Of a stretch of DNA of 64,000 bases, positions 13,708-54,577 are shown in pieces. How positions within the stretch are numbered: the first letter of the stretch is position 1; the number at the start of each line of letters is the position of its first letter. This stretch comes from a candidate division FCPU426 bacterium (lineage in GTDB: Bacteria; Oederibacteriota; Muellerivitia; Muellerivitales; Muellerivitaceae). A program made the translations under genes and the position numbers. Below the pieces are notes generated by a model, which was not told where the DNA came from, did no database searches, and was given only the letters and a program-made list of their open reading frames with translations. Location of the stretch: contig PLZG01000093.1 in NCBI GenBank assembly GCA_003152075.1, forward strand, positions 15,445 to 79,444, given 5' to 3'.

Positions 13708-14310
13708 TTAAATTAAATAGACCAAAAAGAAAAGAATGGGCCAAAGGCCGACCACGAAAAACCAATACATCCGGCAAAGCTCCACTCCCAGCGTGTTTTG
13801 GGCACTGTACTTCTCCTTCCATGCCTTATTCAAGACCCAAAGCAAGGCGATAAGGCCGCCCGTCACATGGACCGCGTGGATTCCCACCAGGCAATAGAAA
13901 AAACCGCCGAAGATGCTGGCGTGGACGGTGAGCCCGAAATGAAGAAGGCGGACCCATTCCGCCCCTTGGACAGCCAGGAAGATAAATCCCAAAACCGCCG
14001 TGGCTGTCAACAACCCCTTGAACAATTGGCTATTGGAGGCCTTGAGGGGTTTGAGGGCCAGAAAAAACGTGAGCCCGCTTAAAAGAAGGATCAATGTGTT
14101 CGCGGAGGTGACTTCCAGGGGGAGGCGAGGTTGGCCCGGTGGGGGCCAGGGCACGGGGCTGAAACGGAACATCACAAAGGAACTGATGAGCCCTGAGAAG
14201 AACATGATTTCGGCGATGATAAATAGGATGATTCCAAGCCTGGCTGGTTCCATGCGGCGATCGGAGGCTGGCCCGGCGGAAGGCCCCGAGCCGGAAACCG
14301 GCCCGTCCAT
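13708..14310 (-). CDS. Cytochrome c oxidase subunit III, paralogue 2
   Basis: Five or more TM segments. Subunit III signatures (..FF..GIHAVHVT.GLIALL..). The start was moved to an internal Met to avoid overlapping the upstream coxD. Confidence 0.75.
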   Translation of the reverse strand: MDGPVSGSGPSAGPASDRRMEPARLGIILFIIAEIMFFSGLISSFVMFRFSPVPWPPPGQPRLPLEVTSANTLILLLSGLTFFLALKPLKASNSQLFKGLLTATAVLGFIFLAVQGAEWVRLLHFGLTVHASIFGGFFYCLVGIHAVHVTGGLIALLWVLNKAWKEKYSAQNTLGVELCRMYWFFVVGLWPILFFLVYLI

Positions 14311-14311
14311 A

Positions 14312-14614
14312 TTAGAAGAACCTTCGAAGGAAATTGATCGAGAAGTGACAGACGTCGGGAATAAACAAGACAAGAAGGATGCCGAACAAGATGAAGGGGA
14401 TGATCATAATCCAATAGATGAGTTTTCCCTCCGATTTCAGGTCCATGTACTGGAAAAAGACCAGCCCAGCCATCACGAAGGCAATTGCGAAGATAGCAAC
14501 GTTGTTGGTCACGATGGGCAAATGGAGGAAAGTCACCCCTACCGCCGAAAGAGCCATCACCACAAGCACTGAAAATATCATCGTATGGTTATTGGAAGCC
14601 GTGGTTGAGTTCAT
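14312..14614 (-). CDS. Cytochrome c oxidase subunit IV, paralogue 1
   Basis: Three-TM 100-aa protein, paralogous to 12925..13224. Confidence 0.65.
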   Translation of the reverse strand: MNSTTASNNHTMIFSVLVVMALSAVGVTFLHLPIVTNNVAIFAIAFVMAGLVFFQYMDLKSEGKLIYWIMIIPFILFGILLVLFIPDVCHFSINFLRRFF

Positions 14615-14629
14615 TGATTCCTCCTGGGG

Positions 14630-15256
14630 TTAAGCTAAAAGATAAAGCATCGGGAACAGGAAAATCCAGACTACTTCAACGAAAGACCAGTAAATACCCG
14701 TAATGGCCACCCGGCCTTTCCAATTCCCCATCGATCCCGTTAAAGCCCTATTCAAGAGCAGGCCCAGAGCAACCAATCCACCCAGAATGTGGGTAGCGTG
14801 GATTCCTGTCATCAGGAAATAAAAGGACCAGAAACCACCGCTAGTGGGAAATTCACCATGAGCGAACTCAGCTGTGTACTCGAAAGCCTTAACGCCTAGA
14901 AAAAGCACACCCATGGCCATGGTCAGGACTAGGTACTTCTTGACGTTATCGTTGTTTTCCGCCCCTGCCGCACCAGAGGCTTTCATCATGAAAAAATTGC
15001 TGACGAGAAGAACCAACGAGTTAAGAGTGCCGGCGACCAGGTTCAGGTGTCGAGCCTCTTCGGACCACTCGGGATGAATCATGCGCATGAGGATGAAGGA
15101 ACCAAAGAGCCCCGCGAAAAGGACAATTTCGGAGGCGATCAGTGCCCAAATACCCAGCCGGCCCGCGGTCAATCCCGCCGGCGCCGAATTGTAACCTTCA
15201 GGACCCTCATTCTCGGGATAGTGGGGTGTCAATGGCAGGTTGGCGCTTTTATCCAT
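14630..15256 (-). CDS. Cytochrome c oxidase subunit III, paralogue 1
   Basis: Subunit III signatures (..FFMTGIHATHILGGLVAL..). Start set at MDKSANLP (ATG 15254-15256), just after the coxA stop. Confidence 0.8.
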   Translation of the reverse strand: MDKSANLPLTPHYPENEGPEGYNSAPAGLTAGRLGIWALIASEIVLFAGLFGSFILMRMIHPEWSEEARHLNLVAGTLNSLVLLVSNFFMMKASGAAGAENNDNVKKYLVLTMAMGVLFLGVKAFEYTAEFAHGEFPTSGGFWSFYFLMTGIHATHILGGLVALGLLLNRALTGSMGNWKGRVAITGIYWSFVEVVWIFLFPMLYLLA

Positions 15257-16943
15257 GGACCGTTTCTCCTTTGATGTTACTAGCTTGGGAATGCCAATCC
15301 TCGGATTCCCCGGGCTTGCTGTACTCGTAAGGACCACTCGTCACCACCGGAAGAACCGGTCCCCAGTTGCCATGGGGCGGGGGCGAATCGGCAAGCCATT
15401 CCAGGGTGTTGGATTGGTAGGGATTTTTCCCCGCTTTCGGACCGTGGTTCATGCTGAGGACGAGGTTCCAAAGGAAGACGGATTGCGAGGCAATCAGTGA
15501 AATGGCGCAAATCGTGGCGAATATATTCCAATTGGCGAACTGGTGGTACTGGGGATAAAAGGACGGATCAGCTATACGGCGGATCATGCCGCCGATACCC
15601 ACCCTGAATAAAGGCCAGAATGTGCCGTTGAAGAAGATGAAAGTAAGCGCCAAGTGCAACAGGCCCAGCTTCTCGTTGAGCTTGCGGCCGTACATCTTGG
15701 GGAACCAATAGTAAACCGCCGAAAAGCCCCCGAAGAAAACCGAGGGGAATAGGGTGTAGTGGAAGTGAGCCACCACGAAATAGGTGCCATGAAGGTAGAT
15801 ATCGACGGAGGCCGAACCCAAGAAGATGCCGGTCAATCCCCCGACCAGGAAGGTGGCAAGGAACCCTAGCATCCAAAGCATGGGCACCTCCAGGCGGATG
15901 GACCCGTGCCGAAGAGTGGCTAACATACAGAAAATGATGATGGCGAAGGGAATTGAAATGAGGATAGTGGTGATCGAGAAGGGCGTGGCCAGGATCGGGT
16001 TCAAGCCCGACAGGAACATATGATGGGCCCAAACGATGAAGCTCAGAAGGATGGCAGAAACCGTGCTCCACAGGATGAGTTTATAGCCAAAAATGGGCTT
16101 GCGGGTGAAGGTGGCCATTATGTCCAACCCCATCCCCAGGGCCGGGAAGAAAAGTACGTAAACCTCCGGATGGCCGAAGAACCAGAAAAGATGTTCCCAC
16201 AACATCGGCTCACCACCTTTGGCGGGCAGGAAGAAACCGGTGCCGAACATGTTGTCCATGATGAGCATAAAATCGCCAGCGATGAGCGGTCCCACCGAGA
16301 AAAAGAAAGTTACGGCGGAGGCTAGGAGAAACCAAACAGTCATGGGAATACGGGAATAGGTCATGCCCTTCGCGCGAAGGGTAATGGCCGTAACCAGGTA
16401 GTTCAAGCCGCCCAGGCTCGAGGAGAAAAAGGCCATAGCAAGAGCAAGCAGCCACAGGCACGCCCCCCACTTGACACCGGCGAATTCGGAGCTGGCGGAC
16501 AAGGGCGGATAACCTACCCAGCCTCCGGCCACCGGACCGCCCGGGACGAAAAAGGATGCAACCAATAACACGGCTCCGGCGAAAGTTAACCAGAAAGAAG
16601 CCATGTTCAGCTTCGGAAAAGCCATATCCCGCGCACCGATCATCAAGGGAATAAAAAAATTGGAGGGAAATGCCGACAAGAAAGGCATTCCCACGAAGAA
16701 GATCATAATGGTACCGTGCAAGGTGATGATGGCGTTGAACTTGTCCGGCGAAACCAGCCCAAAGAAAGGCGCCGGGACGTTGGGAAATGCCACTTCCCAA
16801 CGGATCAGGTAGGCCATGAACCCGCCCAAACAGGCCATGATAGTGGAGAGCAAAAGAAACTGCTTGCCGATCATCTTATGGTCGGTCGAAAAAATATAGT
16901 GGCTGATGAAACTCTGCTTGTGTTCGTGGGCGTCTTGGCTCAT
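15249..16943 (-). CDS. ctaD: Cytochrome c oxidase subunit I (haem-copper oxidase, A-family)
   Basis: 564 aa, 12 TM. Conserved WFFGHPEVY, the HH pair and other haem a / CuB ligand motifs. The start overlaps the coxB stop (ATGA). Confidence 0.95.
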   Translation of the reverse strand: MSQDAHEHKQSFISHYIFSTDHKMIGKQFLLLSTIMACLGGFMAYLIRWEVAFPNVPAPFFGLVSPDKFNAIITLHGTIMIFFVGMPFLSAFPSNFFIPLMIGARDMAFPKLNMASFWLTFAGAVLLVASFFVPGGPVAGGWVGYPPLSASSEFAGVKWGACLWLLALAMAFFSSSLGGLNYLVTAITLRAKGMTYSRIPMTVWFLLASAVTFFFSVGPLIAGDFMLIMDNMFGTGFFLPAKGGEPMLWEHLFWFFGHPEVYVLFFPALGMGLDIMATFTRKPIFGYKLILWSTVSAILLSFIVWAHHMFLSGLNPILATPFSITTILISIPFAIIIFCMLATLRHGSIRLEVPMLWMLGFLATFLVGGLTGIFLGSASVDIYLHGTYFVVAHFHYTLFPSVFFGGFSAVYYWFPKMYGRKLNEKLGLLHLALTFIFFNGTFWPLFRVGIGGMIRRIADPSFYPQYHQFANWNIFATICAISLIASQSVFLWNLVLSMNHGPKAGKNPYQSNTLEWLADSPPPHGNWGPVLPVVTSGPYEYSKPGESEDWHSQASNIKGETVHG

Positions 16944-17626
16944 TGGGCTCCTCCATGTTCTTCTTTATCTTTTGCGGCAAGCCAATCATCAAAAGTTTTT
17001 TGGTCGTCCACCTGCAAAACTCCTGTCATACGGGTATGGCCGAAACCACAGATTTCGTCGCAAACCAAATGAAAAGTTCCCACTTGGTTTGTGTCAAACC
17101 AGCCATTGATCAGCCGAAGGGGCATGACATCCTGCTTCAAGCGCACCTCGGGCAGGAAAAAATCATGAATGACATCCAGGGAAGTCATGATGATGTGGAT
17201 TTTCTTACCGACCGGCACATGCAATTCGCGGTAGGAGGAAATCGCCGCAGGAGTATCGAACTTACCATCCTTATCGGGATAAAAGAAAGTCCAGTCAAAC
17301 TGCTTGGCTTGCACCTTTACCGTAATATCACAGGGCGGCAGGTCTTCTTTAACATCAGCCCAAGTCTTGCCTCCCCGGAAGTCGAGGAACAGATCAATTC
17401 CCAGGATGATGACGGAAAAAACGATGATCCATTGGATTTGGACCCAAGTATCACCCGTCTCATACTTAGCGGTTGTCCCCTTCTTTTGGCGGTATCTGAC
17501 CACCAAGAAAACAAGATAACCTTCCATTACAACGAAGAAGAACCCAGTGATGTAATAAATCAGTTTTAGCATATTGTCGATATCAGGAGCGAATGACGAG
17601 AGTGACAGGGGCAGGGCATCAAGCAT
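16940..17626 (-). CDS. ctaC: Cytochrome c oxidase subunit II (CuA, no fused cytochrome c)
   Basis: Two N-terminal TM helices. Cupredoxin domain with CuA motif H...CDEICGFGHTRM (C-x3-C-G-x2-H-x2-M). First gene of the operon coxB-coxA-coxC-coxD-coxC'-orf-coxD'. Confidence 0.9.
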   Translation of the reverse strand: MLDALPLSLSSFAPDIDNMLKLIYYITGFFFVVMEGYLVFLVVRYRQKKGTTAKYETGDTWVQIQWIIVFSVIILGIDLFLDFRGGKTWADVKEDLPPCDITVKVQAKQFDWTFFYPDKDGKFDTPAAISSYRELHVPVGKKIHIIMTSLDVIHDFFLPEVRLKQDVMPLRLINGWFDTNQVGTFHLVCDEICGFGHTRMTGVLQVDDQKTFDDWLAAKDKEEHGGAQ

Positions 17627-19854: not shown

Positions 19855-20523
19855 CTAAAACCCGTATCCCATCCCCACATGGCCATGTAACGCCAAATTG
19901 GTGACTTCCGAATAACCCCCGGCCGTAGGCGCCCACCAGGCCCAACCCGCCGTGGCCGCAACTTCCAAGACGACAAATAGGTTTGGGTTAAGAGGAAGGT
20001 TCTTACCAACCGCTCCCTGGATCCCGATCCCTGAAACGTAATAGCCCGCGTCAAAAAGTCCACCATGGTCCGAATCCTGGACTTGGCCCCTTATGATGGA
20101 TTGGGGGTGGGTGACAATGGGTCCTATTCCCAAGTGAAAAACGAGTTCCGCCCTTTTCCATGCGTGTCCAAGAAAAAAATAGTTAAACCCATGACACATC
20201 TCCAAATCCTGAATTTCCGCCGTTGTATTGGAAAGGTAAAGCTTGTGATGGATATGCTGGATTTCCCACGCCTCATCGCCATTCCAAAGCCCAACCCTCC
20301 AAGAGTAATAAGGGGCCTCGTCACCAAAGGGATTGGTGTCGTAATTAGCCGTTAATTGAAGGTCGGGCTGTCCGGATTGATGGACTGTAAGGCCGGTCGG
20401 AAAGTTAAAGGCGGTTCCTGTCATCAGCTCAACCGAAACGGTTTGGGCCTCGGCGGCGATTCCTCCTCCAAGCGCCAATGCCCCTAAGACGAAAATAACG
20501 ATTTTGAGTTTGTTAAAAAGCAA
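19855..20523 (-). CDS. Outer-membrane beta-barrel protein (OmpA-like 8-strand barrel?), hypothetical
   Basis: Probable TTG start giving signal peptide LFNKLKIVIFVLGALALGGGIAAEAQ. The mature part has alternating aromatic/glycine strands and ends ..GMGYGF. Confidence 0.45.
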   Translation of the reverse strand: MLFNKLKIVIFVLGALALGGGIAAEAQTVSVELMTGTAFNFPTGLTVHQSGQPDLQLTANYDTNPFGDEAPYYSWRVGLWNGDEAWEIQHIHHKLYLSNTTAEIQDLEMCHGFNYFFLGHAWKRAELVFHLGIGPIVTHPQSIIRGQVQDSDHGGLFDAGYYVSGIGIQGAVGKNLPLNPNLFVVLEVAATAGWAWWAPTAGGYSEVTNLALHGHVGMGYGF

Positions 20524-20542: not shown

Positions 20543-20731
20543 TTATTTTTCGGGCCAGGGTGTGTTCTTATCCCTCCCGCTTTCCCGCGATGGATTGGAA
20601 AGGCTTTCCTCGTCGTCGGCAAAACGAACTTTTCCCCGTAGGACGCACCCTTTCATTCCGGGGACACAATCCCTGTTTGCCCTTTGGCAAAAATAATCCC
20701 CCGTTTGATAGGGGCATGACCAACTGGACAT
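20543..20731 (-). CDS. Small Cys4 protein (62 aa), paralogue A
   Basis: WSCPYQTGDYFCQRANRDCVPGMKGCVLRGKVRF: a C-x8-C-x6-C-x5-C core conserved with 53834..54043 (WSCRYQSGESYCDRVRVGCIPGMLGCALRGKVRF). Divergent from the Crp/Fnr gene. Confidence 0.45.
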   Translation of the reverse strand: MSSWSCPYQTGDYFCQRANRDCVPGMKGCVLRGKVRFADDEESLSNPSRESGRDKNTPWPEK

Positions 20732-20805
20732 GGATTCCGTTCCTTAAGCGCGGGCTTTTAAGTCACCCGACAGTGACATTCTTGAGCGAATCGGTTTCGG
20801 CCTAT

Positions 20806-21486
20806 ATGATGGGCATCATGAACAAGATCGATGCCCTGAGAAAAACGGAGATGTTCGGCTCCCTTTCGGGCGAGGAATTAAAAGTTGTCGCCAAATCCTG
20901 TGTGGAAAAACCCTTGAAAAAGGGCGAAACACTCTTTTGCGCGGGGGACGAGGCCCGGGGCCTTTACGTGATCGCGAAAGGTTCCTTGCGGGCTTTCCGG
21001 ACAAACGAGGACGGCCGGGAACAAGTCATCCACGTGGAGCGGGCCGGCACCACCATGGCCGAGGTCCCCGTTTTCGATGACCGGCCCTATCCCTCCACGG
21101 TGGTGGCGGAGGAGGACAGCGACGTCCTTTTCATTTCAAAAGCGGACGTGAAACGGCTATGCCTCCAACACCCGGCCATCGCCTTGTCGGCTTTGAAACT
21201 CCTGGCAGCTCGCCTCAGAAAAACGGCTGCCCTGGTTGAATCACTCTCCCTTCGTGAAGTCGACCAACGCCTGGCTGCTTTCCTCCTCCAGGAATTCAAG
21301 GAAAAGCGTTTGAAAAAACTCCAACTGCCGACCAATTCGGACATCGCAACCCGCCTAGGCTCGGTTCGGGAAGTGGTTTCCCGCGCCTTCGCCAAACTGG
21401 AATCCGAAAAACTGATCTCGGTCGACAAGCACCGCAACGCCGAACTGTTGAACGAGAAAGGTCTAGGCAGTTACTCCGGAAGTTGA
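20806..21486 (+). CDS. Crp/Fnr-family transcriptional regulator (no N-terminal Fe-S Cys cluster; Dnr/NnrR-like)
   Basis: cNMP-binding beta-roll (..GETLFCAGDEARGLYVIAKGSLRAF..) and C-terminal HTH (..TNSDIATRLGSVREVVSRAFAKL..). The start was chosen at MMGIMNK because the upstream GTG-initiated extension of the track ORF overlaps gene 20543..20731. Confidence 0.85.
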   Translation: MMGIMNKIDALRKTEMFGSLSGEELKVVAKSCVEKPLKKGETLFCAGDEARGLYVIAKGSLRAFRTNEDGREQVIHVERAGTTMAEVPVFDDRPYPSTVVAEEDSDVLFISKADVKRLCLQHPAIALSALKLLAARLRKTAALVESLSLREVDQRLAAFLLQEFKEKRLKKLQLPTNSDIATRLGSVREVVSRAFAKLESEKLISVDKHRNAELLNEKGLGSYSGS

Positions 21487-22206
21487 CCTTTCCCCAGCCA
21501 ATTTTTCCGCCATCGGAAAAAGTACGTTGTTTTCCAAATGGATGTGGTGATGCAGGTCCTCTTCCAGTTCAATGAAAGCCTGGTAAAAAGACCGGAAAGT
21601 GACGCAAGCGTCATCGGGCGGTGTAAAGTTCCCTGTCAATCGGCGCGCTTCCCTCAATTGTTCCCCTACCGTCTCGTGGTCAGCCATGAGAACAGCCCGG
21701 GGCCCCGCTTGGAATCCCTCAAAGGGGAAGAAAAGGCCTTCGTCACCTTCACCTTTTACCGATTTCTCCAAGGCCAAAAGATAGGGGAAGGCGATCTGTT
21801 CTTCTTTTAACATGTGGTGTTCCAATTCGTCGGCCATTTGGATGAAAACCTTTCGAACCGCCAAGAGGTCAGGATGGTTTTGTCCGTGAACCCGGGCCAC
21901 CTTTTCGGACAGTTTGTCGAGTAGGGCCAATTGCTTGCGGGTATAAACATGATGTTTTTCCAGAAGAAACTCCACCAACTCGGAAAGTTTTCGCTCGCTC
22001 CAGTCTTGTTCTCTCGAAGGGGATACAGGAAGACTCTCCAAGGAACGGACCACCTTTTCCACCGAAGCCCCCGCCTTGTCGCAAGCGTCCTTTAACGTCT
22101 TATTCCCCCCACAGCAGTAATCGATTTTCAAGCCTTCGAACAAAGGAATGGCGGACGGGTACTGAATCACGATACTGGCCACTGTTTGGTTGACTTCAGC
22201 TTTCAT
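21463..22206 (-). CDS. ytfE: Iron-sulfur cluster repair di-iron protein (RIC / YtfE / ScdA family)
   Basis: N-terminal ScdA_N motif (..FEGLKIDYCCGG..) followed by a hemerythrin-like di-iron domain (H..E/HxxxE ligands). Paralogous to 50710..51444. Convergent with the Crp/Fnr gene. Confidence 0.8.
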   Translation of the reverse strand: MKAEVNQTVASIVIQYPSAIPLFEGLKIDYCCGGNKTLKDACDKAGASVEKVVRSLESLPVSPSREQDWSERKLSELVEFLLEKHHVYTRKQLALLDKLSEKVARVHGQNHPDLLAVRKVFIQMADELEHHMLKEEQIAFPYLLALEKSVKGEGDEGLFFPFEGFQAGPRAVLMADHETVGEQLREARRLTGNFTPPDDACVTFRSFYQAFIELEEDLHHHIHLENNVLFPMAEKLAGERSTSGVTA

Positions 22207-22268: not shown

Positions 22269-22282
22269 GTGACTTAAGTCAC
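22269..22282. promoter_or_regulatory. Perfect 14-bp palindrome GTGAC-ttaa-GTCAC about 65 bp upstream of ytfE-like gene A
   Basis: 5-N4-5 inverted repeat. The same TGAC-N4-GTCA core recurs upstream of RIC paralogue B (51520), pirin (55372) and the cupredoxin operon (43213). Confidence 0.45.
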
Positions 22283-30656: not shown

Positions 30657-32291
30657 TTAATGAATCGGCGTTGGGCTTAAGAAAGGAAACAAGGCTGGCG
30701 TTTGGCTGAGACGGTGGCGCGGATCCCCTTCCTTTTCTAAGACTGACATCTCATTATCCAACCGATCCAAGACAAAATCCCGGAACGTCCCGAAGTGAAG
30801 ATAAAGGGCCATCAGGGAAACGGCGTTCCGCAAGGCCCGGGGATTCCGGAACAGACAGGTGATCAGCACTTTCCAGAATTGAACCCGGGTTTCTTTGGCC
30901 ATACCAAGTTTAAGAATTAAGCGGTAGAGTGAACGAATATCCCGCAAATGATGGCGCAACGGAATTTTTAACCGTTTTTTGGAGCAGTCCTGCATCAGAG
31001 CCAACCGCAAGACCCTTCCAAAATATTTCTCAGGAAGCAGTGCTTCCTTCACGACCCGCCGGAAATCCTTGAGGATGTTGAACCTGGGCCGTAGGGTGGT
31101 GAAGTTCAACCCCGCAACGCATTGGCAGGCGGTTTTATCAGGTGGGACTTCGAAATCCGCGTCCAATCTGCCTTCCCTTTCAAGCCGCCGGGTGAGCTGG
31201 GTTTTAGGGAGCGCGAAAAGAAGGCCCACCATGTTGACGGGTATGGAAGTGGCTTCGATATTGTCCAGGATGGCCTGGGCCACATCGCCCTTTTCCCCGT
31301 CGAACCCCATGATGTAGCCGGCGTTCACGATCATGCCGTGCCGCATGATCTTGTGGATACTGCCGGCGATGGACCGGTGGGTGTTCTGCCTTTTCTGGGT
31401 GGCCTTCAGGGTCTCCTCGTCCGGGTTCTCGATACCTACAAACAACCAGTTGAACCCCGCCTCCTGCATGAGGTTCATCAACTCCTCGTCGTCGGCCAGG
31501 TTCATGGAGGCCTCGGTGCTGAACTCAAAGGGCCAGTCGTGGTCCTTGAGCCACTGGATGATCTGGGGCAATAGAAGTTTCACTTCTTTTTTATTGCCGA
31601 TGAAATTGTCGTCCACGATGTCAATATGTCCCCGGTAGCCCAGGTCATAAAGGTTTTGAAGTTCGGCCATGACTTGATGGGCGGGTTTGCCCCGGGGAAC
31701 CCGGCCGAAAAGCTCAATGATGTCGCAGAACTCGCACATAAAGGGACATCCCCGGTTCCATTGAATGCCGACGTGCAAATAGTTATCGAACTTGAGCAGG
31801 TCGAATCGCGGCGTGGGACTCTCAGCCATGGCGGCCCTTGTTTCCCCCGCTTTGTAAAGATGCTGGGCTTCACCCTTGGCAAAATCGCTGAGGAACTGGG
31901 GCATGGTCACTTCGGCCTCGCCGAGAATCAGATAGTCGGCTTTGTCGTAAAGATGGGGGCTGGAAGTGGCGTCCGGGCCACCCACAACAACGGTCTTTCC
32001 TTGTGAATGAAAATAGTCAATGAGATGCAAATGGTCCGGCTGTTGGGCGATCATCCCTCCCAGGAATATCATGTCGGCCCATTCCACGTCCCGGCCGTCC
32101 AGTTCCTCGGCGTTAAGGTCGGCCAGCCTGACTTCCCATTCGGGCGGAAGCATGGCGGCAACGGTTATAAGGCCCAGGGGGGCGGCCGGATATTTGGCTC
32201 CCACCACCTCGCAGGTGGCCCGGTAATTCCAGAAGGATTGGGAAGTGAAATGGGGATAAACAAACAAGCATCGGGGCGGACTTCTCATCAT
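30657..32291 (-). CDS. Class B (B12-binding) radical SAM protein with DUF4070-like C-terminal region
   Basis: N-terminal cobalamin-binding Rossmann region. CxxxCxxC radical SAM motif (CPFMCEFC). The length is typical of HpnP/BchE-like methyltransferases, but the specific function cannot be assigned. Confidence 0.75.
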   Translation of the reverse strand: MMRSPPRCLFVYPHFTSQSFWNYRATCEVVGAKYPAAPLGLITVAAMLPPEWEVRLADLNAEELDGRDVEWADMIFLGGMIAQQPDHLHLIDYFHSQGKTVVVGGPDATSSPHLYDKADYLILGEAEVTMPQFLSDFAKGEAQHLYKAGETRAAMAESPTPRFDLLKFDNYLHVGIQWNRGCPFMCEFCDIIELFGRVPRGKPAHQVMAELQNLYDLGYRGHIDIVDDNFIGNKKEVKLLLPQIIQWLKDHDWPFEFSTEASMNLADDEELMNLMQEAGFNWLFVGIENPDEETLKATQKRQNTHRSIAGSIHKIMRHGMIVNAGYIMGFDGEKGDVAQAILDNIEATSIPVNMVGLLFALPKTQLTRRLEREGRLDADFEVPPDKTACQCVAGLNFTTLRPRFNILKDFRRVVKEALLPEKYFGRVLRLALMQDCSKKRLKIPLRHHLRDIRSLYRLILKLGMAKETRVQFWKVLITCLFRNPRALRNAVSLMALYLHFGTFRDFVLDRLDNEMSVLEKEGDPRHRLSQTPALFPFLSPTPIH

Positions 32292-32425
32292 AACGTTTCC
32301 TTTCAAATCTCGGGCATAACTTTGGAAAAACACAATGTCCGCGGATATTGAAACACGATCGGACGATCATCGAACATGATATGAATCACTTACGCTATTT
32401 TGCACAGGGTGGGGCGGTCGGAATT

Positions 32426-33088
32426 TCAGGCTTTTTCCGGTAACACGTAAACCAATATAGCGAAATAATGAAAAAGACTTCCCGCCAGGACGAACAGGTG
32501 CCAAATAGCGTGGCTGTAATAAAACCTTTCCCGGTGGTAAAAGACAGTTCCGAAGGTGTAACTGATTCCCCCTAAAACCAGCAGGACCATTCCCCCCAAT
32601 GGAAGGTTTGCCACGAGGGGCTTGAAAGCCAACAGCGCCATCCAACCCAGCCCGATATAGAGAAAGGTGGAAAATATCCGGTGGCGTCCGGTAAAAAATA
32701 ATTTGTAAACAATTCCAAGTATCCCCAGTCCCCATACCACACCAAAGAGGGACCATCCCCAGGGGCCCCTTAAAGTCACCAGAGTAAAGGGGGTATAGGT
32801 TCCCGCAATGAGAAGGAAAATAGCCGAATGGTCCAGAGTCTCAAAAAACCGCTTGGCCCCAGGCGACCGGAAACTGTGGTAAAGGGTGGCAATCAAATAC
32901 AGAAAAAAAAGCGTCCCACCGTAAACGCTGAAACTGACAATGTGCCAGGCATTCCCTTTGAGGCAGGCCAGGACGATCAACAAGGCAGTTCCAACCCCCA
33001 CCAAGACCGCACCCGCGCCCGCCGTTAAGCGATTAGCCATCTCCTGCTTGCGTGTATATATGTGAGTAAAAGCAGTCGCGGTCGTCAT
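32426..33088 (-). CDS. Hemolysin III / PAQR family 7-TM membrane protein
   Basis: Seven TM helices. HSAIFLLIAGTYTPF and C-terminal HxxxH (..HAIWHLFV..) motifs of the HlyIII/YqfA family. Confidence 0.8.
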   Translation of the reverse strand: MTTATAFTHIYTRKQEMANRLTAGAGAVLVGVGTALLIVLACLKGNAWHIVSFSVYGGTLFFLYLIATLYHSFRSPGAKRFFETLDHSAIFLLIAGTYTPFTLVTLRGPWGWSLFGVVWGLGILGIVYKLFFTGRHRIFSTFLYIGLGWMALLAFKPLVANLPLGGMVLLVLGGISYTFGTVFYHRERFYYSHAIWHLFVLAGSLFHYFAILVYVLPEKA

Positions 33089-33103
33089 GAGTGGTTTTTA
33101 TCC

Positions 33104-34471
33104 TTATTCCTTCGGGGTTAGCCGGACAATAACGCCCGACTTATAGGGCGTGATCGTGTGCTTATTGGGGATGGAGGCATAGTTGGTCCAGACGTTGCCC
33201 TTCCCGTCAAAGACCATGGTTCGGGTATAAGCTCCGGCCCTGGGGAGACGGAAAACAGTGAATTTGTAGGTCTTAGGATCGATGCGGTAAAGACTGTCCG
33301 AACCACAGCCGGTGGCCCAAAGATTGCCAGTGAACCGGTCTCGGCGGATGCAATAAACGTAATCCCCCGGAATGGGCAATGGCAGCTGTTTCACTATTTT
33401 CTTTTGATGGGTGTCGTAGAGGGTAATTTCACCCGAGCCCAATTGGGGAATCCAAAGGCGATCCTCCTCGTCAATGGCCAAACGTTTGGGACCGGCCCAG
33501 GGTTCGAAGATGTCGAGCAATTCGGATTTGCCGGTCTGGGGGTCCAACCAACCCAGGCGGTTGCCGTGGGTTTCGGTAAACCAAATCAACCCGGTTGAAT
33601 CAGCCACAGCCGCGTAGGTATGGACGGCAGCCTCCTCCATCCCCTCCCGGTGCTGAACCGGGAAAACCGTGACCTTTCCGGTTTTGGGGTTGGTTCGGCA
33701 GAGGATTTCCTTATTAAAGTGCGTGGTCCAGAAGCATCCGTCCTTGTCGTGGTAAATGAACCGGTTTTTATCCAACACGAAATACTGGACGCTTCCCCCC
33801 TTGGGATATCCGGAAAAAATCTTAAAGGTTTTTTTTGCGGGGTCAAACCGCGCGACCTTTTCGGCTTTGGTCAGGCAGATCCAAAGCATTCCTTCCTCAT
33901 CCACGTCAATGGCGTGGGCTCCGGCAGGTTTGCCCTTGGCCACACCGGCAGGTATGGGGTATTGCTCAATGGCCCCCGTTTCGGGGTCTATTCCGTAGAG
34001 AATATTGCCGAAGTAATCGGCAATCCAGGCCCTTCCCCCAGCCAGGGCCATGTCATGGTAAAAACCCTCGAAGGCGCCCAAGGGATATTCCTTAATATCC
34101 GCCTTGGCGGTGTGGATTCGAAAACCCTCCTCAGGAAGCTTGGAATGTTCCCCCAACCAATTGGGTAATTCCATGTCGTAGTTGAAGGGGATTAGTTTCA
34201 GTTCCAAATCATCGTCGAGTTTTTTCATCTTTAGATAGGCTTGGTTCCAAGCCTCGGCAGTCGGGGCATAGGCCGCGGGAAGGCCCAAGGGGTGGCAGGC
34301 GGTACAACAGACCACCACTTTACGCCTCATTTCGGTGTTAGGAATACTGGCGATCCAGTCACAGGAACGGGGAATTTCTCTCATGCCACAGCCGGATGTA
34401 AACAGGAATAAGAGGCTTATCAACCCCAATAATCCAACTCCGCCTCGCCCCAACCGCTGTCCCTGGATCAA
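33104..34471 (-). CDS. Lipoprotein with N-terminal monohaem cytochrome c motif fused to a Vgb/NHL-like beta-propeller
   Basis: Signal peptide with lipobox (LFLFTSGC). CxxCH (CTACH) about 30 aa into the mature protein. The remaining ~380 aa has repeated ..G.IW.T.....L.R.DP.TG.. blades resembling virginiamycin-B-lyase / streptogramin-lyase-type propellers. Confidence 0.55.
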   Translation of the reverse strand: MIQGQRLGRGGVGLLGLISLLFLFTSGCGMREIPRSCDWIASIPNTEMRRKVVVCCTACHPLGLPAAYAPTAEAWNQAYLKMKKLDDDLELKLIPFNYDMELPNWLGEHSKLPEEGFRIHTAKADIKEYPLGAFEGFYHDMALAGGRAWIADYFGNILYGIDPETGAIEQYPIPAGVAKGKPAGAHAIDVDEEGMLWICLTKAEKVARFDPAKKTFKIFSGYPKGGSVQYFVLDKNRFIYHDKDGCFWTTHFNKEILCRTNPKTGKVTVFPVQHREGMEEAAVHTYAAVADSTGLIWFTETHGNRLGWLDPQTGKSELLDIFEPWAGPKRLAIDEEDRLWIPQLGSGEITLYDTHQKKIVKQLPLPIPGDYVYCIRRDRFTGNLWATGCGSDSLYRIDPKTYKFTVFRLPRAGAYTRTMVFDGKGNVWTNYASIPNKHTITPYKSGVIVRLTPKE

Positions 34472-50709: not shown

Positions 50710-51444
50710 CTAATCTAAAAAACCCATCTGATTGGCCCGCTTCAAGAGAATGTTATTCTCCAAGTGGAGATGTTGAATGTTGTCTTTTTCCAGTTCCAGG
50801 AGGGCATCATAAAGGGGCTGGAGCATCATCCGCCTGGATTCGGGCGCGCGAAAATGGTCGGTGAGCCGGTCGATTTCCTTCCATTCCCTGTCCGTCATTC
50901 CATGCTCCCACTCCAACACGCGCAAGGGATGGTTGAAGGAGTCGTATTTACTGAAAGTTTGGGGAAGGGGCCGGTCGTGCAGAAGGCACTGTTCTGCTTC
51001 AATTAAGTAAGGAAAGACCACCTCTTCTTCGCGCCTCAAGTGGTTCTCCATTTCATCGGCCATAGTGTTGAAAAGACTATGGATGGTGGCTAGTTCGGGG
51101 GGCGGCCCCCCGGGACCCGTAACCACCTTATACATCAGACCTTTGACACGCCTCATTTGGGACCGAGCGTAGGTGTGGTGTTTCTTGAGGATGTAACCGA
51201 TCAGCTCAGCTAGTGGTTCCTGTCGCCAGTCCCGCTCCTTATACCATTCCTTTGGGGCAGGCTCGATTTTTTCCAGGGCCTCGGTAACCTCCTCCAATGG
51301 GATGCCGACGTAATAACAAGCGTCTTTCAAAGTCCGACCGCCCTCACAGCAATAGTCGATCCCGAATTTCTCGAATAGGGGGATGGACTCCTTCATTTCC
51401 ACCGCAATTTCAGCGACGCTTTGGGATGGATTAATCTTCGCCAT
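50710..51444 (-). CDS. ytfE: Iron-sulfur cluster repair di-iron protein (RIC/YtfE family), paralogue B
   Basis: N-terminal ..FEKFGIDYCCEGG.. ScdA_N motif plus a hemerythrin-like domain. Collinear with 21463..22206. Confidence 0.8.
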   Translation of the reverse strand: MAKINPSQSVAEIAVEMKESIPLFEKFGIDYCCEGGRTLKDACYYVGIPLEEVTEALEKIEPAPKEWYKERDWRQEPLAELIGYILKKHHTYARSQMRRVKGLMYKVVTGPGGPPPELATIHSLFNTMADEMENHLRREEEVVFPYLIEAEQCLLHDRPLPQTFSKYDSFNHPLRVLEWEHGMTDREWKEIDRLTDHFRAPESRRMMLQPLYDALLELEKDNIQHLHLENNILLKRANQMGFLD

Positions 51445-51519
51445 TTTGTGCCCCCGATGGTGGATTTGATTTTCTCTCTCTTGGAGTTTTTTTCACATGA
51501 CATGGATCACATTCAACTT

Positions 51520-51533
51520 ATGACTTTGGTCAT
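51520..51533. promoter_or_regulatory. Palindrome ATGAC-tttg-GTCAT about 80 bp upstream of RIC paralogue B
   Basis: TGAC-N4-GTCA core. Same architecture and distance as the site upstream of RIC paralogue A. Confidence 0.4.
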
Positions 51534-52977: not shown

Positions 52978-53703
52978 ATGAAAAAGTTCTCAGGAATTTT
53001 GTGTTTAGTCTGTCTTTCCGCCATCGGTTTCGTCGCGACCGCGTACGCACAAGTCAATGTCGGGGTCCGGATCGGAGCCAATGGTGGCCTTGACGCCTTT
53101 CACGTGGCCATCGGGGATTATTTCAAGGTGTCCGACCAACAGGTGGAAACTTGCCAGGACAGCAATATCTCCGATGAGGATCAACCGGTGGTTTTTTTCA
53201 TGGCCCAGCGGGCCAACGTTCCCCCCGAATCGGTAATTCTGCTCCGTTCCCGCGGGTGGAGCTGGATGCAAATCGCCCTTCACTTCCGCCTCAATCCCCG
53301 CATTTTCTATACCCCCGGCACTTACGAGGGGACGCCCTATGAGAACGGCCACAGGGCCTTTCACGGAAGGGGCCGGATCCGGCTTTCCGACGCGGACATC
53401 GTCAATTTCGTTAACTTGAAATTCGCGTCCGAGCATTATGGGCATGACCCGCGGGAAATCGCCCAGATGCGGGCCCAAGGCCGGAGCTTCCGTGAAATCC
53501 ACGACGGCTTCGCTCAAAAAGAGGAAAGGATCGAGTGGGACGCCAAGGAAGAACCTCGCCACCGGGATAACAGGAGAATGAGACAGGATGACCGGCCTCA
53601 CCCGGACCAAAATGGGCGGAATAGGGATAATAATGGGGATCAAAACGGAAGGGGCGGGAACGACCACAAAGACCGTAACGACCGGCATGACGACAACCAA
53701 TAA
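52978..53703 (+). CDS. Secreted hypothetical protein with highly charged R/D/N/H-rich low-complexity C-terminal tail
   Basis: Classic signal peptide (MKKFSGILCLVCLSAIGFVATAYAQ). The tail reads RDNRRMRQDDRPHPDQNGRNRDNNGDQNGRGGNDHKDRNDRHDDNQ. The antisense ORF of similar length lacks any such features. Confidence 0.5.
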   Translation: MKKFSGILCLVCLSAIGFVATAYAQVNVGVRIGANGGLDAFHVAIGDYFKVSDQQVETCQDSNISDEDQPVVFFMAQRANVPPESVILLRSRGWSWMQIALHFRLNPRIFYTPGTYEGTPYENGHRAFHGRGRIRLSDADIVNFVNLKFASEHYGHDPREIAQMRAQGRSFREIHDGFAQKEERIEWDAKEEPRHRDNRRMRQDDRPHPDQNGRNRDNNGDQNGRGGNDHKDRNDRHDDNQ

Positions 53704-53742: not shown

Positions 53743-53778
53743 AAAAGCCGGGAATCTTTGGTTCCCGGCTTTTTCATT
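53743..53778 (+). terminator. Rho-independent terminator
   Basis: aaaaGCCGGGAAtctttgGTTCCCGGCttttt. Confidence 0.65.
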
Positions 53779-53833: not shown

Positions 53834-54043
53834 CTAAACCTGGCTTTTCCTGGCCCGCCGGGGACTGTCCTTTTTCCCCCCCCAATCCGACGGCGGGACT
53901 AGTTTTCCTTCTTCATCATAGGTAAAGCGCACTTTCCCGCGCAGGGCGCACCCTAACATGCCGGGGATACAACCCACTCTCACCCTATCGCAATAGGATT
54001 CCCCACTTTGATAACGGCAAGACCATCCGGGCATGAATCCCAC
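53834..54043 (-). CDS. Small Cys4 protein (69 aa), paralogue B (GTG start)
   Basis: WSCRYQSGESYCDRVRVGCIPGMLGCALRGKVRF core, about 60% identical to ORF 20543..20731 over 34 aa. Preceded by a long structured leader. Confidence 0.45.
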   Translation of the reverse strand: MGFMPGWSCRYQSGESYCDRVRVGCIPGMLGCALRGKVRFTYDEEGKLVPPSDWGGKKDSPRRARKSQV

Positions 54044-54080
54044 TCCTTGTCAGTTGAAGGTGGATATTGTAAAAGGGCTT

Positions 54081-54116
54081 AAAAAAAGCCCCGGACCGCT
54101 TGGTTCCGGGGCTTCC
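54081..54116 (-). terminator. Intrinsic terminator (minus strand) located 40 nt upstream of the small Cys4 ORF start
   Basis: On the minus strand: GAAGCCCCGGAAccaagcGGTCCGGGGCTTTTTTTAAG. It either ends a long pirin 3' UTR or an sRNA, or acts as an attenuator in the leader of the Cys4 ORF. Confidence 0.55.
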
Positions 54117-54326
54117 AGCAACATCTTCAGCAAGATTCATTGATGGTTATGGGCCTTTGCCCAGCGTCATTGAAACGCAACCCTTGAACCTTTCCAACGA
54201 TTGTACCGACCAACCTCCTACTAACATCTGAAGGACCCGACCTTCGGGGCCTCACCAACAACAACTCAGCAACAAACATCAACAACCTAACTGAACTCAC
54301 CGGCTTCGCCAGGCTGGATTCCTTGA

Positions 54327-54470
54327 CGGTTCGGGACCGCAGTCCCCGCAACACCCTTAAGGGCGCTTCAACCGGAACCCTTACCAGTTCCACCGCTCTC
54401 GACGGCCGTGTTCCTCATCGGTTTGGGACCTCAGTCCCCGCTGCACCTCTAAGGTGCCTTGATTTGGAAC
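54327..54470. repeat. Two ~52-bp imperfect direct repeats (about 80% identical), each containing a GGGAC-N4-GTCCC hairpin, in a 530-bp noncoding region
   Basis: R1 is at 54327-54378 and R2 at 54419-54470 (cggtTYgggaccKcagtccccgcWRcacc.YtaaggK.cc...). An AAC-rich tract lies at 54255-54292. No plausible ORF on either strand. Confidence 0.45.
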
Positions 54471-54577
54471 AGTTCCTACGGTTCTATTAATACAACTCTT
54501 TTTAATAAAACTTTATGATTTGAATCAGGTTGGTTTTTTTAAGGTAATTCATGCTGGGATGCTTTTTTACCCCGATT

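Follow-up and report, generated by a model that had tools for sequence, protein, structure and literature searches.

What are the two short cysteine-rich genes that stand close to iron-repair genes in a candidate division FCPU426 bacterium, and to which process might their products belong? They lie in a 64,000-nucleotide stretch of contig PLZG01000093.1 (assembly GCA_003152075.1, positions 15,445 to 79,444), referred to here as the window. Two minus-strand open reading frames, copy A and copy B, encode mini-proteins sharing four cysteines (Cys4). As a first-pass annotation made from the sequence alone had noticed, each lies near a gene of the RIC/YtfE type, at a distance of 0.7 kb from copy A (just beyond crp) and 2.4 kb from copy B. 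The pair represents a family not described before, of the familiar general type of small cysteine-rich metalloproteins. We tentatively read its members in this lineage as components of a low-oxygen/nitric oxide (NO) regulon that would hold iron or an Fe-S cluster and act as accessories to RIC/hemerythrin and DUF2249 proteins, a reading to which we give somewhat less than an even chance.

Both open reading frames are present where the first-pass annotation had placed them (Table 1), and the common core it quoted for the pair is an exact match. The two proteins align without gaps with 29 identities in 58 positions (50%, BLASTP E 1e-20), and a six-frame motif scan found no third copy in the window. 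In copy A the cysteines are residues 6, 15, 22 and 29, with the tail starting at about residue 38. The last cysteine interval had been given as five residues; the sequence reads six, hence the spacing is C-x8-C-x6-C-x6-C. The copy B reading frame also stands, but its proposed length of 69 residues does not: the protein most likely begins at ATG 54034 and has 66 residues (MPGWSC...), because the AAGGAG-N8 arrangement there mirrors the AAGGAA-N8-ATG of copy A and public collections hold the 66-residue form. The exact copy B protein was found in public collections, and an orthologue with 80% protein identity occurs in the related loci L096/L097. The exact copy A protein is absent from a collection of 15 billion proteins, although copy B from the same genome is present. 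Copy A appears to have been missed by gene callers.

Short open reading frames raise the question of coding status, for which the first-pass annotation had proposed a synonymous-site analysis. When the first 40 codons of the two copies are compared, identity amounts to 80% at first, 75% at second and 57% at third codon positions, with synonymous divergence (pS) of 0.50 and nonsynonymous divergence (pN) of 0.23. Comparison of copy A with orthologues on other contigs gives pN values of 0.07-0.22 against pS values of 0.63-0.92, the latter near saturation. Low nonsynonymous change with synonymous sites close to saturation against the orthologues identifies the pair as coding, rather than as a duplicated non-coding segment. 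A and B are therefore real protein-coding genes under purifying selection, and the substitution pattern together with the family alignment bears out the view of them as paralogues with four invariant cysteines.

A word-indexed search yielded 13 close homologues of 61-96 residues, and a profile search of 1.84 billion cluster representatives extended the family to 326 clusters at 50% identity (E ≤ 0.001), with protein sizes of 46-133 residues in all 150 matches listed of the 326. In an alignment of 128 sequences the four cysteines alone are invariant, while P24, G28 and L31 are conserved in at least 90%. The family motif can be written as M-S-x-W-x-C-P-[HY]-x(5-7)-C-x(6-7)-C-x-P-G-x-x-G-C-[VI]-L, and a disordered tail comes after it. 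The spacing C-x7-9-C-x6-7-C-x6-C holds in 153 of 163 members, and the first cysteine falls at residues 4-7 in 132 of 160. The core comprises the N-terminal 35-38 residues, and the remaining 25-40 residues form a variable tail rich in K, R, E, P and A (K+R+E = 33%). Neither a signal peptide nor a hydrophobic N-terminal segment was found in family members which, given the N-terminal position of the cysteines, suggests that these are cytoplasmic mini-proteins.

The 128-sequence alignment proved too divergent for a locus scan, and a subset of the PGMKGCVL subtype was used instead. This subtype alone accounts for at least 451 confirmed loci/species genomes, with one genome per species scanned. The closest relatives are found in candidate division FCPU426, and other carriers belong to the Omnitrophota, Acidobacteriota, Nitrospirota, Nitrospinota, Myxococcota (Anaeromyxobacter) and the Alpha-, Beta- and Gammaproteobacteria, the last three including Magnetospirillum, Sulfuritalea, Dechloromonas, Azospira, Gallionella and Competibacter. 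All named members are recorded as "hypothetical protein", including MSR1_04530 of Magnetospirillum gryphiswaldense MSR-1. The concern that the cysteine pattern might be private to this genome is settled by this spread.

The first-pass annotation could not place the pair in a known family, and we reach the same result: no Pfam, NCBIfam or PDB family covers A or B. Searches of Pfam-A 2025 and NCBIfam 20.0 used the curated cut-offs. The best Pfam match of the pair was to Fn1_2 (18.2 bits, cut-off 27) and there was no match in NCBIfam; the DUF2249 profile (PF10006) likewise had no match in either protein. No Pfam family matched more than six of the 128 members, and none matched with an E value better than 0.02. 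A proteobacterial member and a fused member had no match in NCBIfam either. A sequence-profile search of the PDB returned chance matches only (ShKT, E 0.09). Sequence motifs and locus tags led to no paper in the searched literature, tblastn of plasmids gave no match, and a protein search with copy B returned only the cluster of copy B itself.

The genomic setting of the family offers a lead to its function. Six contigs with close homologues carry islands in which the small gene is accompanied by Crp/Fnr and either RIC or single-domain hemerythrin genes, with the Crp/Fnr gene 0-3.5 kb from the small gene in six of six close-clade islands. Single island contigs add DUF2249, qNorB, a NirK-like multicopper protein, FeS_assembly_P, a COX operon, or a block of radical SAM, HlyIII and B12-radical SAM genes. 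Of 86 loci, 21, representing at least three phyla, have a hemerythrin or DUF2249 gene no more than 6 kb away; these 21 comprise most close-clade loci, four from Omnitrophota and six annotated as Sulfuritalea, Sterolibacterium, Rhodocyclales or unclassified Betaproteobacteria. Hemerythrin ranks first among the Pfam families of the immediate neighbours (9 of 140) in a set of ~70 less closely related genomes. The association with NO/low-oxygen stress genes proposed for this one genome hence recurs in relatives, both as islands and as a gene fusion.

The fusion is found in Omnitrophota (L014, L015, L017 and L027), where proteins of 121-125 residues combine the Cys4 module with a complete DUF2249 domain, a disordered linker separating the two. 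The fusion cluster contains 35 sequences and the arrangement is stable in this phylum; the DUF2249 profile matches the Omnitrophota fusion proteins only (e.g. P0097, 92 bits). An AlphaFold2 model of such a fusion has a predicted local distance difference test score (pLDDT) of ~80 for the DUF2249 part and 67-75 for the Cys4 part behind the linker, and Foldseek returned only non-significant, TusA/SirA-like matches. Two further candidates were rejected as true fusions, being probably chimeric gene calls: P0022 combines the small protein with half a DrsE_2 domain, P0052 with a C-terminal fragment of RIC. DUF2249 is induced during denitrification in haloarchaea, occurs in fusion with an Fe-S carrier NTPase and has links with both hemerythrins and heme-copper oxidases (PMC11218638), and the Thermus thermophilus proteins DrpA and DrpB affect nitrate respiration (PMC6282519). 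The family shares with these proteins its hemerythrin/RIC, heme-copper oxidase/NOR and nitrite reductase setting; it differs in that the window proteins have no DUF2249 domain, the model of which weakly resembles TusA/SirA.

A shared regulatory signal points in the same direction. The inverted repeat RTGAY-N4-RTCAY, which contains the TGA-N6-TCA core of FNR/FixK/DNR boxes, occurs at 14 exact sites in the window against 0.49 expected; shuffled sequences reached at most three, and none of 100 reached 14. A gene start follows at a distance of 41-144 nt for eleven of the 14 boxes; for a twelfth, in front of a P-type ATPase gene, the distance is 22.5 nt. The boxed genes are NMO, copy A, RIC1, an H+-pyrophosphatase, the B12-radical SAM gene, a ROK gene, a cytochrome c gene, RIC2 (two boxes), pirin and the P-type ATPase. 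With an FNR-like inverted repeat upstream and the motif enriched, copy A carries the sequence marks of an FNR/DNR-type regulon member. In its promoter, 29.5 nt separate the box centre from the start of the hexamer AAGAAT, a spacing identical to that at the structured-RNA promoter described below, and a layout suggestive of class-II promoter geometry. Similar arrangements occur elsewhere: in L008, L009, L061, L065 and L089 (and, with one mismatch, in L095) the small gene has a box 50-94 nt ahead of it, centred at -79.5 in the case of L089, which carries a B-type relative, and a box precedes the first gene of the operon that holds the small gene in L093, L004/L013, L011/L012, L092 (norB) and L090 (NirK-like).

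The candidate reader of these boxes is the Crp/Fnr-family protein of the window, whose gene is, as first described, divergent from copy A. Its NCBIfam matches to FtrB, CRP, Fnr and FixK are all below threshold, and its relatives in the PDB include FNR and DNR. It contains no N-terminal cysteine cluster of the FNR type, and its recognition helix (REVVSR) shows the E--SR signature. A different palindrome, GTCAC-N6-GTGAC, had been singled out in the copy A promoter region. It is indeed present, probably spanning ~-6 to +10 of the putative class-II promoter, but it does not recur as an operator: at least one match is found in 61 of 100 shuffles, a chance level which together with its uniqueness led us to reject it as the regulon motif in favour of the recurrent RTGAY-N4-RTCAY box. 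The palindrome could instead form a 5' hairpin or act as a secondary operator.

In the model we infer for metal binding, promoter geometry, box reader and biochemical role, the four invariant cysteines would hold one metal centre. The ligand would most likely be iron or an Fe-S cluster, somewhat likelier than structural Zn, because CxxC zinc knuckles are absent and the genomic partners are iron-centre proteins. A DNR/FNR-like regulator of the Crp family would read the boxes of a low-oxygen/NO regulon in this lineage, comprising the two RIC genes, NMO, the heme-copper oxidase operon, a structured small RNA (sRNA) and copy A. Copy A would be activated in class-II fashion from the box upstream of its ATG, and copy B, 45 nt behind the sRNA terminator, may depend on read-through. 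The proteins would then help RIC/hemerythrin and DUF2249 proteins to protect, repair, supply or sense iron or Fe-S centres under NO or hypoxia, possibly as a small Fe or Fe-S carrier/acceptor or as an NO/O2-labile adaptor. The roles suggested in the first-pass annotation (sensor, chaperone or anti-regulator) are likewise hypothetical.

Several observations weigh against this model. The immediate neighbours of the small gene are heterogeneous across the ~70 distant genomes, and in most Proteobacteria they are mixed (histidine kinases, YjdM, methyl-accepting chemotaxis proteins). In only eight of ~85 loci do the 300 nt preceding the small gene contain a box, which most proteobacterial members lack. 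As neighbours are heterogeneous in Proteobacteria and few loci have an upstream box, the link of the family to an NO/hypoxia regulon is lineage-specific. In the window itself, the 45 nt between the RNA terminator and the copy B start region contain no box, and the nearest one, at 54515-54528, would serve the upstream RNA. The copy A box overlaps the start-codon region of crp, making crp autoregulation equally possible; the box may serve this role instead of, or besides, copy A activation. The AlphaFold2 model of the 38-residue core is of low confidence (pLDDT 65) and Foldseek returned 0 matches to it in the PDB. What suggests metal binding by the Cys4 proteins is solely the invariance of the cysteines, and the basic disordered tail fits nucleic-acid or ribosome binding at least as well as an iron role.

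This last point belongs to the strongest competitor, which we nevertheless consider doubtful: the cysteines would bind structural Zn and the basic tail a nucleic acid, the ribosome or the Crp/Fnr regulator, making the protein a regulatory adaptor or anti-regulator rather than an Fe or Fe-S protein. Cys4 sites in proteins of such size are commonly Zn sites. The K/R-rich disordered tail, the proximity of Crp/Fnr in all six close-clade islands and the frequency of signalling proteins (histidine kinases, methyl-accepting chemotaxis proteins, GGDEF) among proteobacterial neighbours are consistent with an adaptor. On the other hand, the CxxC or CPxCG knuckles of zinc ribbons and rubredoxins are lacking, no zinc-finger family matches consistently, and neither the DUF2249 fusion partner nor the hemerythrin/RIC neighbours are DNA-binding proteins.

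Comparison with established small metalloproteins does not place the family in any of them. Zinc ribbons, rubredoxins and desulforedoxins resemble it in having ~40-60 residues with four cysteines expected to bind one metal ion, and are often co-regulated with oxidative or nitrosative stress genes. However, rubredoxins and zinc ribbons use paired CxxC/CPxCG knuckles and desulforedoxin a CC pair, whereas here single cysteines stand 6-9 residues apart; there is no CxxC in the family, no Pfam match and no fold match that would indicate zinc-ribbon or rubredoxin membership. Ferredoxin-type 4Fe-4S proteins are not matched either (no Fer4 match at E ≤ 1), and the CxxCxxCxxxCP pattern is absent. The closest functional analogy for an Fe-S sensor or adaptor is offered by the WhiB-like (Wbl) proteins, adaptors in stress regulation of Actinobacteria that contain an NO- and O2-sensitive [4Fe-4S] cluster and are defined by C-x(14-22)-C-x2-C-x5-C and a G[VI]WGG turn. 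The family shares with them a small cytoplasmic format, four invariant cysteines and a basic C-terminal region, but has no Whib match at E ≤ 1, has other cysteine spacing and motifs, is shorter (46-133 residues, ~38-residue core) and occurs outside Actinobacteria. As each testable defining feature is lacking, the family is not a member of the WhiB-like, rubredoxin or desulforedoxin groups. RIC/YtfE/ScdA proteins share with it the putative regulon, the neighbourhood and the proposed process (iron-centre maintenance under NO), and are unrelated to it in sequence and size (RIC ~220-250 residues, with ScdA_N and hemerythrin domains).

Far less probable than the Zn adaptor is a precursor of a ribosomally synthesised and post-translationally modified peptide, in which radical-SAM enzymes encoded nearby would cross-link the cysteines, on the pattern of SCIFF/ranthipeptides or sactipeptides. 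Like SCIFF-type peptides, the family consists of short cysteine-rich open reading frames, and in three related loci (L001, L092 and L093) a B12-binding radical SAM (DUF4070) gene and a second radical SAM gene lie beside or near the small gene; the same set lies ~10 kb from copy A in the window. However, conservation is concentrated in the cysteine region that opens the protein (residues 1-38), with a variable C-terminus behind it, the reverse of the usual leader-core layout. The radical-SAM linkage is not conserved family-wide, Radical_SAM being absent from the 25 commonest Pfam families of the 140 neighbours in ~70 genomes (the L001 neighbour does match). No transporter or protease gene is linked, and the radical-SAM/HlyIII/desaturase set, which has its own box, looks like a lipid-modification cluster, a function it may indeed have. 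In the window the block comprises the B12-binding radical SAM gene, HlyIII and a 455-residue open reading frame, by synteny probably the second radical SAM.

A secreted disulfide-rich mini-protein of toxin- or protease-inhibitor-like type is less probable again: the matches to Fn1_2, the ShKT peptide and Prot_inhib_II that would suggest it all lie far under threshold, there is no signal peptide, the first cysteine is at residue 5-6 in most members, and the fusion partner DUF2249 is a cytoplasmic domain. Finally, both open reading frames are short and copy A is not called in the public collection, but the notion that they are spurious, with a likeness derived from a duplicated non-coding or RNA element, has next to no chance given the excess of third-position differences, the pN and pS values against orthologues, the ribosome-binding site conserved in both copies, and the frame and four cysteines kept in hundreds of homologues.

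Between the pirin gene and copy B lies a structured RNA, which the first-pass annotation had described as a ~500-bp leader of copy B. Structured non-coding sequence is indeed present, but it reads as an independent RNA gene rather than a leader. The RNA is ~95% identical to its counterparts in L096/L097 (estimated from an alignment by eye), compared to 80% for the copy B protein, and conservation with these loci falls in the spacer between the RNA terminator and the copy B ribosome-binding site. A metagenome scan with the repeated motif GGGGACUGNGGUCCCNAACC yielded four more homologues (L098, L101, L103 and L108), all with a terminator and with unrelated downstream genes. Of its three modules, each combines a closing stem and a variable hairpin with an invariant GGGAC-N4-GUCCC hairpin, after which comes AAACC. 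The consensus fold of five sequences has 103 predicted pairs, of which 21 show compensatory changes; 92% of cells are paired, compared to 36-58% with slid partners, and none of 500 shuffles reached the observed covariation. The box upstream would be centred at ~-40.5 of the putative RNA start, and the same box-to-hexamer spacing occurs in L098, L103 and L108. As the RNA has its own box, -10 element and terminator, and is found before unrelated genes without the small gene, it is a stand-alone predicted sRNA, putatively controlled by the FNR-type box. For the same reasons a riboswitch leader of copy B was rejected as the principal explanation: elsewhere the RNA, with its own terminator, precedes unrelated genes. 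Copy B may be expressed by read-through past this terminator or from a weak promoter. The RNA is previously undescribed and no Rfam family matches it: in Rfam 15 nothing reached the gathering threshold, the best match being CsrC (16 bits against 61, E 0.014). A CsrB/CsrC-like sponge was rejected, this match being weak and GGA motifs not clearly enriched by our own count.

Table 1 Features of the copy A and copy B regions and related sites, in window positions.
Feature	Position	Strand	Remarks
Copy A	20543-20731	-	62-residue Cys4 mini-protein gene; open reading frame present, 13 close homologues
Copy A Shine-Dalgarno AAGGAA	20740-20745	-	8 nt before copy A ATG
Palindrome GTCAC-N6-GTGAC	20762-20777	.	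sole match in window, even at one mismatch
Crp/Fnr-family regulator	20803-21486	+	Pfam cNMP_binding and HTH_Crp_2; divergent from copy A
Copy A box ATGATGGGCATCAT	20806-20819	.	centre 81.5 nt upstream of copy A ATG; overlaps crp/fnr start-codon region
RIC1, RIC/YtfE-type di-iron Fe-S repair protein	21463-22206	-	TIGR03652 228.5 bits, cut-off 204.7; ScdA_N and Hemerythrin
RIC1 box GTGACTTAAGTCAC	22269-22282	.	upstream of RIC1
221-residue protein downstream of copy A	19855-20520	-	signal peptide MLFNKLKIVIFVLGALALGGGIAAEA, C-terminal Phe
COX2-COX1-COX3(-COX3) heme-copper oxidase operon	13708-17626	-	downstream of NMO; syntenic with L001, L093
B12-binding radical SAM (DUF4070), HlyIII, 455-residue open reading frame	30657-34471	-	own box at 32376
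RIC2, RIC-like protein	50710-51444	-	ScdA_N and Hemerythrin (Pfam); TIGR03652 175 bits, below cut-off
RIC2 boxes	51497-51510, 51520-51533	.	two sites upstream of RIC2
Convergent gene beside copy B	52978-53703	+	241-residue secreted protein
Terminator 3' of copy B	53743-53773	-	after copy B gene
Copy B	53834-54034	-	Cys4 mini-protein gene, most likely 66 residues; alternative GTG start at 54043
Copy B ribosome-binding site AAGGAG	54043-54048	-	8 nt spacing to ATG 54034; arrangement as in copy A
Structured RNA (predicted sRNA)	54081-54481	-	~400 nt, three modules; within ~500 nt between pirin and copy B
RNA intrinsic terminator	54081-54113	-	strong; ends 45 nt before copy B ATG
FNR-type box CTGATTCAAATCAT	54515-54528	-	-10 element TATTAA (54488-54493) 22 nt later
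RTGAY-N4-RTCAY sites (14, each 14 nt)	starts 1987, 19535, 20806, 22269, 30445, 32376, 38769, 43216, 49074, 49820, 51497, 51520, 55372, 58668		

The remaining neighbours in the window can be described briefly. Downstream of copy A follow the gene of the 221-residue protein, an NMO-family gene and the COX2-COX1-COX3 operon, the COX1 product of which scores 562 bits on CtaD (cut-off 671). The 221-residue protein belongs to no Pfam or NCBIfam family and looks like an outer-membrane protein, because of its signal peptide and C-terminal Phe; the mechanically called open reading frame of 255 residues, which overlaps copy A, extends this gene too far. It was rejected as a conserved partner of copy A, not being homologous to the downstream gene in L001, L092 and L093. 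In these three loci a polytopic membrane protein of 223-243 residues without a Pfam family (L001 8197-8913, L092 7196-7867, L093 7173-7904; 70-75% identical among the three) is encoded a few nt after, or overlapping, the small gene, and is absent from the window. The radical-SAM/HlyIII block is also found beside the small gene there. Copy B sits between the pirin gene and a convergent gene without known family. The latter encodes a secreted product that ends in a low-complexity tail in which D, R, N and H abound, and in L087 and L088 this gene is likewise kept beside copy B.

Mini-proteins are under-annotated, and copy A, uncalled as a gene in public data, is a case in point. The family spans several phyla and includes the genetically tractable Magnetospirillum gryphiswaldense MSR-1, hence the hypotheses set out here are directly testable. 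If its members do hold Fe or an Fe-S cluster and cooperate with RIC and DUF2249, they would be a missing component of iron-centre repair or sensing under nitrosative stress and denitrification. A bolder proposal, which we regard as unlikely, is that the family constitutes a new class of NO/O2-labile Fe or Fe-S mini-protein, acting as carrier, acceptor or sensor-adaptor with RIC/hemerythrin and DUF2249 in microaerophiles and denitrifiers, with the adjoining sRNA in the same response; if true, this would provide a first functional handle on DUF2249. For an uncultured candidate phylum, the new structured sRNA and the FNR-type regulon offer a way into the study of gene regulation.

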